Shown piece by piece: positions 1,180 through 63,680 of a stretch of DNA of 64,000 bases. The notes under the pieces are model-generated. The model did not search any database and was not told the DNA's origin. It saw nothing but the letters and a program-made list of their open reading frames with translations. This DNA comes from an uncultured Candidatus Saccharibacteria bacterium (GTDB lineage Bacteria > Patescibacteriota > Minisyncoccia > Phycocordibacterales > XYD1-FULL-46-19), in contig CAZXCI010000002.1 in NCBI GenBank assembly GCA_964639285.1, forward strand, positions 45,660-109,659, given 5' to 3'. The translations under genes were made by a program, and so were the position numbers. Each line of letters starts with the position of its first letter. Position 1 is the first letter of the stretch.

Positions 1180-1564
1180 GGGAGTGATCGGCTTCGACGA
1201 GTAGCCACTCTTTGGTTTGTATGTAGAGTTCCAGTTTACTCTTAAAACTTACTGGAAACTGTTAAATGCCAACGCATCTAACAAGGGAGGTGTGGCTTCG
1301 CCATATTTCTCTCCAGCCTTCGCTTTAGCGTAATGCTGGTGTTCGCTAGGTTGTTGTCTGGGCAATCTAACCGGGCATAATAAATTCAGACTAGCTTTTA
1401 AGATCGTCTCGACTTAAATGCAAAACTTAGAGACTCGATTATTTAAATTCTTGATTATTTCTGACTTAAATAATTTAAATCCACTTTAGTGGTTGAAATA
1501 ATCTAAACATATAGATTGGTCAAGGAGTTCTGTTCGCACGCGGGTTCGATTCCCGCCACTTCCA
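1180..1564 (+). ncRNA. ssrA: tmRNA (SsrA)
   Basis: The 5' end GGGAGUGAUCGGCUUCGACG matches the tmRNA consensus. The 3' tRNA-like end is GGUUCGAUUCCCGCCACUUCCA. A 7-bp acceptor stem pairs GGGAGUG with CACUUCC and includes the G3:U70 alanine identity pair, followed by discriminator A. An internal tag frame at 1268-1333 (ANASNKGGVASPYFSPAFALA-stop) ends in ALA. Confidence 0.85.
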
Positions 1565-1578
1565 CAAAATTTTTCCCC

Positions 1579-7212: not shown

Positions 7213-7286
7213 GCGCGTGTAGCTCAATTGGTTAGAGCACAGAGCTTATACCTCTGCGGTTCCTGGTTCGAGTCCAGGCATGCGCA
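7213..7286 (+). tRNA. tRNA-Ile (anticodon UAU)
   Basis: A 74-nt cloverleaf. The acceptor stem is GCGCGTG/CATGCGC, the anticodon stem CAGAG/CTCTG, the anticodon loop CTTATAC, the T-loop TTCGAGT and the discriminator A. Confidence 0.8.
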
Positions 7287-7307
7287 CATATTTAAGACAA
7301 CCTTTAG

Positions 7308-47624: not shown

Positions 47625-47658
47625 GTTGATATTATTGTCATTTGTGATATACTGCTAA

Positions 47659-47729
47659 CGCGGAGGAGAGCGATGGTTGTTCGCAAGGCTCATAACCTTG
47701 AGGTTCGGGTCCGATTCCCGACTCCGCAA
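47659..47729 (+). tRNA. tRNA-Met (anticodon CAU), initiator-like
   Basis: Anticodon loop CTCATAA, a C1xA72 mismatch, an A11:U24 pair, T-loop TCCGATT and discriminator A. These are initiator features. Confidence 0.7.
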
Positions 47730-47793
47730 CCGCGTAAAAAGAAGAAGAGTGGGGTTGAAAAGCTCGCTCTTTTTCGTTAAGATATACCTGTTT

Positions 47794-47890
47794 GTCGGCG
47801 TAGCCCTGCCTGCCGGCAGGCAGGTCAGTTGGTTACCCGCCCGAACGTATCATTCGGTACGGGCAAGGAGCGCAGGTTCTATAAGCACTT
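47794..47890 (+). pseudogene. Degenerate 5' copy of tRNA-Met(CAU) carrying two palindromic insertions
   Basis: It starts with the same GTCGGCGTAGC as the intact tRNA at 47909. One insert is a 20-bp perfect palindrome CCTGCCTGCCGGCAGGCAGG. The D-loop TCAGTTGGTTA follows. A second hairpin insert CCCGCCCGAACG...CGGGC sits before the GAGCG.. continuation. There is no T-arm and no acceptor 3' half. Confidence 0.6.
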
Positions 47891-47908
47891 TGCAATGATG
47901 ATTTGTTT

Positions 47909-47985
47909 GTCGGCGTAGCTCAGTTGGTTAGAGCGTGGGACTCATAAGCCCAAGGTCGGTGGTTCGACCCCACCCGCCGACACCA
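47909..47985 (+). tRNA. tRNA-Met/Ile2-type (anticodon CAU), elongator-like
   Basis: GTCGGCGTAGCTCAGTTGGTTAGAGC..., anticodon loop CTCATAA, T-arm GGTGGTTCGACCCCACC, acceptor GTCGGCG/CGCCGAC and an encoded CCA. Confidence 0.8.
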
Positions 47986-47988
47986 CTC

Positions 47989-48017
47989 TTTGTAAAAAGG
48001 GTAGGAATGTGTAGAAT
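47989..48017 (+). promoter_or_regulatory. sigma70-like promoter (TTGTAA, 17 nt, TAGAAT)
   Basis: The -35 at 47989-47994 and the -10 at 48012-48017 position a TSS about 5 nt before the partial tRNA-Asp copy. Confidence 0.5.
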
Positions 48018-48027
48018 ATAACGGTTT

Positions 48028-48105
48028 GCGGTCGTAGCTCAACTGGTTACCCGCCCGAACGACTGAATTGTTCAGTCGGGCGGGGAGCATCCACCTGTCA
48101 CACTT
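48028..48105 (+). pseudogene. Degenerate 5' half of tRNA-Asp with a hairpin insertion in the D-loop
   Basis: GCGGTCGTAGCTCAACTGGTTA is identical to the intact tRNA-Asp at 48346. An inserted hairpin CCCGCCCGAACGACTGAATTGTTCAGTCGGGCGGG follows. The tRNA then continues as GAGCATCCaCCTGTCACaC through the GUC anticodon with two G-to-A changes, and the T-arm is missing. Confidence 0.6.
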
Positions 48106-48112
48106 GTTCTTT

Positions 48113-48355
48113 ATGTATACAGTATATGTATTAGCTGACGACTCTAACCATTTATATAAGGGGGTTACAAATGATTTAGAGAGAAGGCTAAAAGAGCATA
48201 AATATGGTAAAACAAAAACAACGGCAAAAATGACAAATTTGCATGTTGTTTATACGGAAGTATATAATAGTTTTACAGAGGCTCGATCTCGGGAGATTTA
48301 TTTTAAAACTGCGGCCGGGAGGAGGTTTCTAAAAAGTAAAATACTGCGGTCGTAG
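48113..48355 (+). CDS. Small stand-alone GIY-YIG nuclease (YhbQ/UPF0213-like)
   Basis: MYTVYVLADDSNHLYKGVTNDLERRLKEHKYGKT...LHVVYTEVYNSFTEARSREIYFK matches the GIY-YIG core (Y..Y...G.T.dl.rRl.eH....E). The 3' end overlaps the first 10 nt of tRNA-Asp. Confidence 0.65.
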   Translation: MYTVYVLADDSNHLYKGVTNDLERRLKEHKYGKTKTTAKMTNLHVVYTEVYNSFTEARSREIYFKTAAGRRFLKSKILRS

Positions 48356-48419
48356 CTCAACTGGTTAGAGCATCCGCCTGTCACGCGGAAGGTTGAGGGT
48401 TCAAGTCCCTTCGACCGCG
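48346..48419 (+). tRNA. tRNA-Asp (anticodon GUC)
   Basis: Acceptor GCGGTCG/CGACCGC, anticodon stem TCCGC/GCGGA, loop CTGTCAC, T-arm GAGGGTTCAAGTCCCTT and discriminator G. Confidence 0.85.
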
Positions 48420-48518
48420 CATTAAGGGACTAAGGGAGGTAAAAGCCCATCTCTGGTCAAGGTCAGATATCTATATCTAAATAGATGGAAGGTTAAAATT
48501 GACTAATAAAGCGCCGAA

Positions 48519-48556
48519 TTCCCGTTGGGAATTCGGCGCTTTTTTGCGCACAATGT
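48519..48556. terminator. Bidirectional rho-independent terminator
   Basis: The stem GCGCCGAATTCCC/GGGAATTCGGCGC (13 bp) has TTTTTT on the + side and TTTATT on the minus side. Confidence 0.8.
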
Positions 48557-48559
48557 GGC

Positions 48560-49879
48560 CTAGTTCAGGACCGGAAAAACTTTTGCGAGGAAAAGGCGGT
48601 TTTCCTCATCTTTCCCGAATTCCCCATTGAGGCTCTTCCTGCCTTCTTCTATCAATGATTCGATCTTGCCGTCAGGAAAAGTTTCAGGGAAGAACCAGCC
48701 ATTTCTACCGAGACGTTTATGAGCCAAGAGCAGGCGGCTAAAATCGTCCCAGCTCCATTTGAGGGGGTATCTTTCAACTCCCTCTAGCATCGCTTGCCCA
48801 ACGTCCTCTTTGCTTCTGATGGGGCGACCTTCTTCTGGAGCGAGAGTATCTTCAAGGGCCCCACCCTCTGCTCTTTGGATTGGTTCATCATTGGTAGAGG
48901 GACGGGCAATGATTTGTTTTCTCTCTAATAACTCCAGTGTCTCTTTCACTTTGTTGTGAATCATTGCGTCTGGTGCTGTCGAGAGATCGAACCCGACAAT
49001 CCTTGCTTCCTCTTTGATTTTCTGGGGTTTGTCCAGTTCTCTCCAGCTGATTCCCCAAAGATTATTTGAGAGGATTGCGAGGATCATTGTCTGCCAATCA
49101 TCCCCGTTGCCGTTGGGAGACTTTAATTTCCCAATCGAGGGATTAGCCGGCGGGTCATCTCTTTCGACACTTCGACTTCTGGGGGAGTGGGCTTTGCCGG
49201 TGACAATCAAAGCTCTCTTGTAAGCATCTTTGAGCTGCCTTTTTCTACTCGGCGCTGGGTTACCTGGCCCTGCTCTTGAGATCTCTCTTCCTGCCGAGAA
49301 CTCCTCGCTCTCTCCATCGTCTGGAGTTTCGCGCTTGTCGTCGTCTTTTTCAAGGAAATAAACCCTTGTGCTTCCTTTGTCGCTCTCTCGACGAGAAGAG
49401 ATCCTGTGACGGCCGGTTCTTCTAATCCCTTGCAGAGCCGCCATCGTCAGTTTGCGCTCGTCATTTCCTGGTGAGGCTAGATTCAATTCAATTAAATGTC
49501 GATGGATCTGGAGAATTGTACTCTCGCCGTTTTTTGCAAGGAAGTCGAGGATAGCGGCGCTTTTGCTTTCTCCACGTTTTCTTCTCTTTGAGACTTTTGT
49601 CTCTTTTCCCGTCGTCGGCATCGAGGATCGGTTTTCCAACGTAAGAGTAGTTGTGCCTGCCTCAGTCTGTAGTTGGGCCAATCCCGCTTCTAGCTGAGAC
49701 TTTTCTCTCTGTAACTCTGGGAGTTTCTCTTCCAGAAGGGTGACAGCAGATCTGATGTTTCCTATCTGGAGATTGAGGACTCTAATTTTTGTTCCAATCT
49801 CCTGCTCCCCTGTTAGGAGACTTCCAGACGTCATCATCTGAGCGATGTCATTTGGGCCGAAGTGTTTTCTCGTAAGCAT
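48560..49879 (-). CDS. Hypothetical protein, GC-rich, with coiled-coil N-terminus and basic/acidic low-complexity centre
   Basis: 439-aa ORF at about 52% GC, clearly above the local background. No recognised catalytic motif. Confidence 0.4.
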   Translation of the reverse strand: MLTRKHFGPNDIAQMMTSGSLLTGEQEIGTKIRVLNLQIGNIRSAVTLLEEKLPELQREKSQLEAGLAQLQTEAGTTTLTLENRSSMPTTGKETKVSKRRKRGESKSAAILDFLAKNGESTILQIHRHLIELNLASPGNDERKLTMAALQGIRRTGRHRISSRRESDKGSTRVYFLEKDDDKRETPDDGESEEFSAGREISRAGPGNPAPSRKRQLKDAYKRALIVTGKAHSPRSRSVERDDPPANPSIGKLKSPNGNGDDWQTMILAILSNNLWGISWRELDKPQKIKEEARIVGFDLSTAPDAMIHNKVKETLELLERKQIIARPSTNDEPIQRAEGGALEDTLAPEEGRPIRSKEDVGQAMLEGVERYPLKWSWDDFSRLLLAHKRLGRNGWFFPETFPDGKIESLIEEGRKSLNGEFGKDEENRLFLAKVFPVLN

Positions 49880-63418: not shown

Positions 63419-63557
63419 TACATACATGCCCCGACAGAGAAGCTTTGGCTCTCTGCCGGGGCTTCTTCGTTCATTGAAATATAAAAATTTTTCTGATATT
63501 CTAAAATCACAATTGAATATGGTGGCCTAAACCTACGCTTTTCAATTAAGGCTAGGC

Positions 63558-63680
63558 ATGGCTCAAAGTCCCGATGAAGACACTGAACCCCGCGTTCAGC
63601 AACTCTTCATCGGGCCATATCGGGAAACCGGTATGGGGTCGCAAGACCTAGCTAGCGCGGGGCTTAGTGTATATGAATGA
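63558..63680 (+). other. Structured GC-rich leader with a 40-codon upstream ORF preceding the T5orf172 gene
   Basis: Long stem CCCGATGAAGA...CTCTTCATCGGG (63570-63614) with an internal hairpin. GNRA hairpin GGTC-GCAA-GACC (63637-63648). The ORF MAQSPDEDTEPRVQQLFIGPYRETGMGSQDLASAGLSVYE has a stop that overlaps the downstream ATG. Confidence 0.3.

Follow-up and report, generated by a model that had tools for sequence, protein, structure and literature searches.

The window analysed here is a 64-kb stretch of DNA (64,000 nucleotides, contig CAZXCI010000002.1) from an uncultured Candidatus Saccharibacteria bacterium, and one tRNA gene cluster within it raises a question. Why is there, in front of both tRNA-Met and tRNA-Asp, a partial copy of the 5' half of the respective tRNA, and why does one of these copies lead into a small open reading frame (ORF) for a GIY-YIG nuclease that ends inside the intact tRNA gene? 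The Asp locus is read here as one copy of a selfish, homing-endonuclease-like nuclease cassette that is resident at the 5' ends of Patescibacteria tRNA genes, with a probability of about one half. The layout of the cassette has a fixed order, namely the native tRNA promoter, a partial 5' copy of the tRNA comprising its first 15-47 nucleotides (nt), an ORF of 80 amino acids (aa) for a GIY-YIG protein, and the complete tRNA. In this text tRNA* denotes a partial 5' tRNA copy, HP denotes a GC-rich palindromic hairpin, and L numbers denote the compared loci. All coordinates without an L prefix are counted from the first letter of the window.

The Asp and Met units of the window

Three tRNA genes are located on the + strand within 47,640-48,560, and a sigma-70-like promoter is found shortly 5' of each. 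The features of the two units are as follows.

47659-47731, + strand: initiator-like tRNA-Met.
47755-47783, + strand: promoter-like site TTGAAA-17-TAAGAT, which is the native tRNA-Met upstream region and precedes the intact tRNA-Met in the empty relatives L083-L085.
47794-47888, + strand: tRNA*-Met, about positions 1-40, at the original position of the gene and with two palindromic inserts, recognised by its identity to tRNA-Met.
47805-47824, unstranded: perfect 20-bp palindrome CCTGCCTGCCGGCAGGCAGG between positions 11 and 12 of tRNA*-Met, from a second recurring palindrome family.
47836-47864, unstranded: HP in tRNA*-Met after GGTTA, inner-stem class GTACCG/CGGTAC, mutated and with a degenerate 3' foot.
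47895-47918, + strand: mini-ORF of 7 codons, ATG ATG ATT TGT TTG TCG GCG TAG, read from the sequence.
47909-47985, + strand: intact tRNA-Met(CAU), 115 bp downstream of its original position (67.1 bits).
47990-48017, + strand: native tRNA-Asp promoter TTGTAA-16-TAGAAT, conserved in L086, L087, L092, and L093.
48028-48101, + strand: tRNA*-Asp, positions 1-38 with one mismatch, at the original position of the gene and split by HP, recognised by its identity to tRNA-Asp.
48050-48084, unstranded: HP CCCGCCCG-AACG-ACTGAA-TTG-TTCAGT-CGGGCGGG, 35 nt, exactly between A21 and G22 of tRNA*-Asp.
48113-48355, + strand: 80-aa GIY-YIG nuclease ORF, UPF0213/SLX1-like, starting 11 nt past tRNA*-Asp.
48346-48420, + strand: intact tRNA-Asp(GUC), whose U8-A9-G10 is the stop of the ORF (72.8 bits).
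48509-48547, + strand: terminator-like hairpin that includes a T run, where transcription of the unit likely ends.

The original prediction, which was made from the sequence of the window alone, described a partial 5'-half copy before both tRNA-Met and tRNA-Asp, and both copies are present. The first 22 tRNA positions of tRNA*-Met are all identical to the intact tRNA-Met (22/22), while tRNA*-Asp without its hairpin matches the intact tRNA-Asp at 38 of 39 positions (22/22 and 16/17). The covariance-model check proposed for these copies turned out negative, as the Rfam tRNA model (RF00005) scored neither half-copy even at E <= 10. This is to be expected of copies that are both truncated and interrupted, and their tRNA origin therefore rests on direct sequence identity. 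Neither at the gathering threshold nor at E <= 10 did the Rfam scans match the leader, the hairpins, or the half-copies, and they detected no group I intron. Both copies had been called decayed, which is appropriate for the degenerate Met copy and inappropriate for the almost intact Asp copy.

The palindromic inserts are as they had been described. The perfect 20-bp palindrome is present in the Met copy, and the same 20-mer was found again inside a tRNA-Val fragment of L021. A related palindrome, CCTGCCTG..CAGGCAGG, occupies the D-loop of tRNA* in L215. Both hairpins share the 12-mer CCCGCCCGAACG, which occurs at just these two sites in the window against a chance expectation of 0.23. The HP of tRNA*-Asp has a folding energy of -23.2 kcal/mol (z = -5.0 versus shuffled sequence).

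The ORF of the Asp unit does end within the first 10 nt of tRNA-Asp as claimed, and its length is 80 aa, not 81 aa. Its last three sense codons and its stop overlap positions 1-10 of tRNA-Asp, and the stop TAG (48353-48355) is U8-A9-G10 of that tRNA. The consensus promoter claimed for the Asp copy has the expected TTGTAA and TAGAAT, its spacer is 16 nt instead of 17 nt, and it is the native tRNA-Asp promoter that is kept in insert-free relatives. The promoter, half-tRNA, ORF, and tRNA have the layout of one transcription unit, as had been proposed. In the Met unit, the mini-ORF lies in a 15-nt filler and stops at U8-A9-G10 of tRNA-Met, which is the usual frame of the family. Judged from the sequence, the mini-ORF is likely a remnant of a deleted GIY-YIG ORF, and the Met locus looks like the same kind of unit as the Asp locus with its ORF lost.

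The relatives of the source genome were located via the neighbouring 197-aa protein, using a protein database and contig comparison. A metagenome scan with the same protein as query gave no match. Five relatives in which the neighbour protein is ~70% identical (L086-L088, L090-L093) retain the gatC-gatA-197aa-tRNA cluster, and their promoter (...TGTGTAGAATATAACGGTTT) leads straight into the intact tRNA-Asp. No half-copy, hairpin, or ORF was found at tRNA-Asp or tRNA-Met of these five relatives. The Met site is also empty in an 84% relative (L083-L085). The Met unit is present in a 96% relative (L081/L082), where it has a better-paired hairpin ...GTACCATTCGGTAC... and a 16-nt version of the palindrome. 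The contigs of the two closest relatives stop inside the units, as expected from repeats.

Both the Asp site and the Met site thus exhibit presence/absence polymorphism at an otherwise conserved position. The empty sites consist of the native promoter and then the intact tRNA, and therefore the units are insertions behind the tRNA's own promoter. It also follows that tRNA* holds the original position of the gene while the intact tRNA has been displaced downstream, and that the native promoter must read tRNA*, HP, ORF, and tRNA in turn. The synteny comparison that had been suggested with close relatives lacking the inserts has therefore found them, with their tRNAs intact behind native promoters.

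GIY-YIG genes at tRNA 5' ends in Patescibacteria

The small ORF had been assigned to the YhbQ/UPF0213-like GIY-YIG proteins, and the profile, structure, and sequence matches agree on this. The Pfam GIY-YIG profile (PF01541) gave 46.2 bits against a curated cut-off of 22.6 (E = 5.6e-12). Among 29 homologues, the catalytic-site residues R24 and E61 are invariant and Y5, Y15, and G17 are nearly invariant. The AlphaFold model (mean predicted local distance difference test score of 91.8) has the element order E-E-H-E-H-H and the GIY-YIG fold, a three-stranded sheet with flanking helices. Its Foldseek matches are UPF0213 and Slx1 (TM 0.58-0.69, ranks 1-6), followed by the I-TevI catalytic domain and UvrC-N. 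The closest solved structures by sequence are the UPF0213 proteins EF2693 and BH0048 and then SLX1 (1ywl, E = 2.7e-10; 1zg2, E = 9.3e-9; then SLX1). From the sequence comparison and the predicted fold, the ORF product groups with UPF0213/SLX1 and not with I-TevI or UvrC. UPF0213/YhbQ and the SLX1 nuclease domain, which are of the minimal GIY-YIG fold, are thus its best matches in both sequence and fold. SLX1 cuts branched and stem-loop DNA. It needs SLX4 and has a RING domain, neither of which is present here. To our knowledge, the bacterial UPF0213 proteins have no known function and no reported link to tRNA.

The ratio of nonsynonymous to synonymous substitution rates (dN/dS) is 0.04-0.14 for close ORF pairs, which indicates purifying selection, and only 2 of 82 ORFs are disrupted. 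Conserved residues, low dN/dS, and few disruptions together mean that the family is maintained as a functional protein. A PHROGs profile search with the ORF gave no match, and an NCBIfam search gave a sub-threshold group I intron endonuclease match alone. A tblastn search over 50,697 phage records gave one weak match, and the ORF is therefore not typical of phage genes.

ORF homologues were searched in one genome per species of the GTDB, which gave 374 relatives, and the counts below refer to the best 80 of these. All 80 come from metagenome-assembled genomes of Patescibacteria. The end of the ORF is at most 40 nt from a same-strand tRNA gene in 74 of the 80 loci. In two further loci a hairpin-bearing tRNA copy alone separates the ORF from the tRNA, and two are cut by contig ends. 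L065 is the one true exception, in which the ORF is located just 3' of an intact tRNA-Arg. The adjoining tRNAs differ in their amino acid, with at least 11 types represented (Ala 25, Asp 14, Thr 10, Val 9, Phe 5; also Ile, Arg, Lys, Met, His, and Pro). The suggestion that a small mobile cassette acts at tRNA genes is borne out by this recurrence among the best 80 of 374 loci and by the empty sites in relatives.

The family ORFs usually lack a stop of their own and end at the conserved TAG of the tRNA (U8-A9-G10). Among 73 loci, 61 have their stop within the tRNA and 44 use U8-A9-G10 for it; most of the others have TAG or TAA at positions 13-15 or 21-23. As the ORF ends at the TAG of the tRNA and stands behind the native promoter, the cassette borrows both promoter and stop from the tRNA. 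Duplication of its 5' part leaves the tRNA functional.

A clear 5' copy of the same tRNA, starting at about +1, is located upstream of the ATG in ~60 loci. The position at which tRNA* ends has a median of 35 (interquartile range 29-39), usually lies 0-15 nt before the ATG, and varies from 15 to 47 across the family. Practically every upstream tRNA* bears at least one HP-type palindrome. HP is found at positions 20-22 in 39 cases and at 9/10 in 12 cases, with a few at 12-14, in the anticodon loop, and in the T arm. The same loci contain 88 other tRNA genes, and only a few of these have a hairpin-bearing copy of their own. The view that such half-copies are generally decaying does not hold for the family, in which they are at least as conserved as the synonymous sites of the ORF.

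Other arrangements of the same parts were also identified. The order is ORF, intact tRNA, and then an HP-bearing tRNA copy of positions ~10-76 in L018, L070, L078, and L021. The order is ORF, full-length tRNA copy with two HPs, and then intact tRNA in L016. Whole units are duplicated in tandem in L075 and L215, and units without an ORF that resemble the Met locus of the window are found in L038 and L076. A long target-site duplication at each insertion was considered and rejected, as it fails for the downstream copies (L018, L070, and L078) and for the full-length copy (L016).

The median pairwise identity of the ORFs is 60%. The anticodon is the same in 6 of 6 ORF pairs that are at least 80% identical and in 15 of 19 pairs that are at least 75% identical, and the closest pairs are orthologous loci that are syntenic over kilobases. 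The nearest relative of the window ORF (75%) is at tRNA-Ile(GAT), and a 47% relative is at tRNA-Arg(CCU) behind a tRNA* with a CCTGCCTG...CAGGCAGG palindrome in its D-loop. This relation of ORF identity to anticodon points to long-lived residence at a given tRNA with occasional switches. Recent intragenomic jumps were sought in the family loci, and none was seen except the tandem duplicate of L075.

The first hint of the recurrence was the N-terminal extension VAQSVPART...VRAG of some ORF homologues, which is the translation of GTAGCTCAGTCGGTA followed by CCCGCCCGAAC...CGGGCGGG. The C-terminal IAQLVEQ of one homologue is translated tRNA. Gene callers lengthen some of the ORFs, either upstream across the hairpin and tRNA copy or downstream into the tRNA (P0031, P0033, P0043, P0051, and P0056), which leads to false N- or C-terminal extensions in protein databases. 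A 42%-identical GIY-YIG ORF in L214 has no detectable tRNA nearby and is flanked by direct repeats of ~85 nt (1408-1490 and 1738-1822). These repeats look like tRNA fragments studded with small TCCGCC..GGCGGA hairpins.

A dispersed hairpin family

The canonical form of HP is CCCGCCCG-AACG, followed by an inner stem, a loop, and CGGGCGGG. The inner stem occurs in discrete classes (ACTGAA/TTCAGT, TACCG/CGGTA, ACCGA/TCGGT, and others) in which both paired sides change. Its pairs alternate between A-T and T-A, C-G and A-T, C-G and T-A, and G-C and C-G in a compensatory manner, and at least five consecutive pairs were found in 73 of 89 HPs. The asymmetric GAACG has a conserved partner CGTTC, which gives two alternative inner helices of similar energy. 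Both orientations of HP occur (52 versus 25). L004 and L048 have ORFs that are 84% identical and HPs at the same site that are exact reverse complements, and therefore HPs flip in place. This weakens the idea that HP orientation is a record of independent insertions. No target-site duplication was found at the tRNA sites, where the insert is exactly CCCGCCCG...CGGGCGGG between A and G.

The hairpin had been predicted to be a repeated element, and it recurs widely beyond the two window sites. An HP-centred metagenome scan gave at least 120 stretches with 126 HPs among the matches listed. Among these matches, ~14 of the 126 HPs adjoin a GIY-YIG ORF and ~18 are in tRNA-like sequence. One 32-mer is identical in 28 loci.

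HPs of 30 or 36 nt are in-frame in long ORFs with Pfam matches to GyrA, SecA, PurL, RecG, UvrD/PcrA, and aldehyde dehydrogenase. HPs are also found at the exact centre of unrelated palindromes, where the flanks are mutually inverted repeats, which points to hairpin tips as the preferred insertion target. HPs are nested in each other's loops in L005 and L106. Further HPs are within arrays of ~7-8-nt tandem repeats such as (AACCAGG)n. The sites are as follows.

In-frame HP sites: L189:2491-2520, L135:4321-4350, L204:2198-2227, L105:7841-7876, L122:262-291, L163:2628-2660, L171:2940-2975.
HPs at palindrome centres: L149:2311-2346, L154:502-540, L166:2576-2626, L172:436-474, L193:4731-4766, L210:2851-2886.
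HPs in tandem-repeat arrays: L094:6633, L100:8119, L110:3301, L130:1080, L139:937, L140:684, L165:1301.

The many unrelated contexts of HP identify it as a dispersed palindrome and not as a D-loop-specific insert. A hairpin that targets one D-loop site, as had been proposed, is ruled out by the other tRNA sites (9/10, 13/14, the anticodon loop, and the T loop besides 20-22), the palindrome tips, and the in-frame sites in protein genes. HP is a dispersed selfish palindrome family comparable to the Rickettsia palindromic elements (RPEs), for which background has been reported (PMC1779305), as it has for MITEs (miniature inverted-repeat transposable elements) in a review (PMC10969869). HP resembles RPEs, MITEs, and repetitive extragenic palindromic (REP) sequences in being short, GC-rich, and multi-copy, and in its presence in-frame in essential genes, within RNA-gene-derived sequence, and within intergenic hairpins. 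The RPEs are ~100-150 nt long, whereas HP is 28-50 nt long with the conserved asymmetric AACG/CGTTC. HP also differs from all three in having no visible target-site duplication at tRNA sites and in being strongly concentrated beside the GIY-YIG gene. Unlike in REP systems, no REP-associated tyrosine transposase (RAYT) or other transposase is evident with HP.

Proposed spread of the cassette and competing explanations

The cassette is proposed to spread as a free-standing homing endonuclease. The nuclease would nick or cut the cassette-free tRNA gene, probably in a structure-dependent manner as SLX1 does, and such action on stem-loops is plausible because the protein is SLX1-like and has no DNA-binding domain. 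Repair from the occupied allele would then copy the cassette across, with homology provided by tRNA* on the left and by the intact tRNA on the right, and each transfer would recreate the tRNA duplication. Switches to a new tRNA type would be rare, and the partial tRNA copies around the ORFs may be scars of such repair. HPs may build up in tRNA* since it has the shape of a tRNA and can be dispensed with. A stabilising effect of HPs on the cassette is also probable, as they fragment the direct repeat, and a recombinant that deletes the ORF downstream of HP would leave HP in the sole functional tRNA and would be lethal. Cleavage by RNase P at +1 would part most ORFs from their stop and could hold the protein at a low level.

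One of the closest known systems is that of phage T4, in which SegB is a free-standing GIY-YIG homing endonuclease in a tRNA gene cluster (PMC2330249). The cassette shares with SegB, and with SegF of 'intronless homing', a small selfish GIY-YIG gene beside conserved genes, presence/absence polymorphism, and a presumed spread through double-strand-break repair in which the flanks are co-converted. The Seg proteins have ~200 aa or more and a DNA-binding domain, whereas the protein here is a bare 80-aa domain of the UPF0213/SLX1 clade with predicted nuclease activity. The Seg genes also have their own stop and no duplicated target, whereas the ORF here is fused to the 5' end of the tRNA and is accompanied by a hairpin-bearing copy.

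Several observations weigh against a homing cassette. No cleavage activity or target site is known for the protein, and its homing by cleavage is a proposal. The 80-aa protein is the catalytic domain along its whole length and lacks a DNA-binding module, to which classical GIY-YIG homing endonucleases owe their long target sites. In an occupied genome, any target within the tRNA is still present in the intact tRNA, which leaves self-immunity unexplained, and the origin of the duplication at a new tRNA type is likewise unexplained. ORF paralogues in the same genome are 61-68% identical. Near-identical ORF copies at different sites were looked for among the family loci and none was seen, so recent transposition is undocumented and much of the distribution could be due to vertical inheritance and repeated loss. 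The hairpins raise a further difficulty. The 80 GIY-YIG loci together span 439 kb, 77 of their 78 HPs are in tRNA-derived copies, and the HP density in tRNA* beside the nuclease gene is orders of magnitude above background. The leader of tRNA* and HP is 98% identical between L008 and L014, compared with 72% at the third codon positions of their ORFs. Together, the density and the conservation of the leader suggest that HP is an integral working part and not a passive passenger.

The presence of HP beside practically every gene is better explained by a nuclease-plus-palindrome system similar to a REPtron than by the homing cassette. The GIY-YIG protein would mobilise HPs, which it would recognise by their bulged hairpin form in cruciform or single-stranded DNA. 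The gene-adjacent HP would be the home copy, the dispersed HPs would be its non-autonomous offspring, and the tRNA would serve as promoter, stop, and safe site. This is the main rival of the homing cassette and is, in our judgement, unlikely. The HP in tRNA* is 10-40 nt from the ATG of the ORF, and ~12% of the HPs listed from the unbiased sample are within 75 nt of a GIY-YIG ORF although such ORFs make up far below 1% of the genome. The distant GIY-YIG relatives (35-47% identical) are also beside palindrome-bearing tRNA copies. The outer stem is conserved, as are the asymmetric AACG and the matching CGTTC, and the changes of the inner stem are compensatory, which suggests that a folded hairpin is recognised. 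HPs insert at stem-loop junctions and in the loops of other hairpins. The nearest structural relatives (Slx1) cut DNA of branched and stem-loop shapes. Against this, GIY-YIG enzymes cleave by hydrolysis and are not known to transfer strands, most HPs are listed without a GIY-YIG ORF in the same stretch, and the enrichment near the ORF could stem solely from tRNA* being a tolerated, hairpin-rich target. A REP/RAYT system in the strict sense was rejected, as the adjoining gene is a GIY-YIG nuclease and not an HUH/Y1 (IS200/IS605-type) enzyme, and the likeness is in the layout only.

A real possibility is that the cassette and HP together form one new system. The more specific proposal is that the GIY-YIG protein and HP are a new nuclease-plus-palindrome mobile system in which the enzyme reads the bulged hairpin, or the transcript of tRNA* and HP is a targeting RNA, and in which the enzyme both seeds HPs into tRNA copies, hairpin loops, and essential genes and carries itself from one tRNA gene to another. 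We regard this proposal as doubtful.

A domesticated or regulatory operon is improbable. The leader of tRNA* and HP would then control the tRNA and a repair nuclease that benefits the host, for example through RNase P, which would remove the stop by cleaving at +1 and thereby restrict the amount of protein made. The strong purifying selection on the ORF, the conserved leader of L008 and L014, the stops that lie within the tRNA at 61 of the 73 loci, and the kilobase synteny of orthologous loci, which indicates long vertical residence, are all consistent with such an operon. It is made less likely by a patchy distribution in which close relatives have empty sites, by the occurrence at 11 or more tRNA types, which leaves no tRNA-specific logic, and by the existence of ORF-less remnants, tandem duplicates, and disrupted ORFs. 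The free flipping of HP also argues against a defined RNA regulatory element.

Chance local duplications with unrelated hairpins and a merely neighbouring ORF, which the visible degeneration of the Met copy and the absence of an Rfam tRNA score for either copy might favour, can hardly account for a three-part layout in ~60-74 of 80 independent loci, with consistent frame and stop usage and with other tRNAs of the same loci mostly free of such copies.

Three other kinds of insertion at tRNA genes were compared with the selfish cassette. Integrase islands and prophages also insert in a tRNA gene and keep the tRNA by partial duplication at one end. They duplicate the 3' part, span kilobases, and encode a tyrosine or serine integrase, whereas the insertion here has a duplicated 5' part, ~250 bp, and a nuclease gene only. 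An integrase-type island was therefore rejected, since nothing but the GIY-YIG ORF is encoded between the repeats and the duplication is of the 5' part and not of the 3' part. Group I introns have been reported at position 35/36 of tRNA-Asp and tRNA-Asn in Patescibacteria (PMC13011429), and they share with the window the phylum, the tRNA-Asp target, and an insertion boundary near the anticodon loop. Those introns are spliced ribozymes, whereas the insertion here has no match to an Rfam intron family, has too little non-coding sequence, and is followed by an uninterrupted tRNA restored by duplication, so that a group I intron was also rejected. The full text of that report mentions neither GIY-YIG genes nor hairpins. 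The eukaryotic retrotransposons Ty3 and TRE5-A insert immediately upstream of tRNA genes, where they find a safe haven (PMC6101501). They share the use of the tRNA 5' flank as a haven in a gene-dense genome, and they differ in reverse transcription, in targeting through Pol III factors, and in having no fusion to the tRNA. In the literature searched (with subscription-only papers outside its scope), neither this layout nor the hairpin sequence was found to be described. The module, which combines a selfish nuclease cassette with a palindromic mini-element, is apparently undescribed.

Other observations were made in the same tRNA cluster and elsewhere in the window. A 439-aa ORF without a Pfam match is located between tRNA-Asp and two tRNA-Thr genes (48560-49879, - strand), while the tRNA-Thr genes directly follow tRNA-Asp in relatives such as L092. 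Other lineage-specific ORFs are found in the same cluster (L088:4540-5031 and L090:4532-5122), and the cluster is therefore an insertion hot spot. A GC-rich insert of ~200 nt (..GGCGGGAGTTGAACGAGAAGGGGGTCGGGGAAACATC..) is located between two tRNA-Met genes in L088:4230-4390 and L092:4240-4390 and is absent from the window; it could be a structured RNA or another small element. A reverse transcriptase gene beside a bAvd gene, in the layout of a diversity-generating retroelement, is found just upstream of gatC in L090:356-1735, and nothing comparable is present at that position in the window. The window also contains a LOOT RNA (Rfam RF03000, 76.9 bits) at 63524-63649 (+), a transfer-messenger RNA at 1180-1567 (+), and a tRNA-Ile with anticodon UAU at 7213-7287 (+).

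The units break assemblies and create false protein extensions. The widespread and functionally blank UPF0213/YhbQ-type proteins gain a testable context, that of tRNA genes and DNA hairpins. The in-frame presence of HP in gyrA, secA, recG, and other core genes parallels the RPEs of Rickettsia, which is another lineage with reduced genomes. We know of no mobilising enzyme yet identified for this RPE-like class, and the nuclease-plus-palindrome system, if true, would provide one for such in-frame palindromic elements. If the selfish cassette is the true explanation, a gene of 240 bp can inhabit the essential single-copy tRNA genes of very small bacterial genomes, where it would take the promoter and stop of the tRNA and compensate by duplicating the front half of the tRNA.

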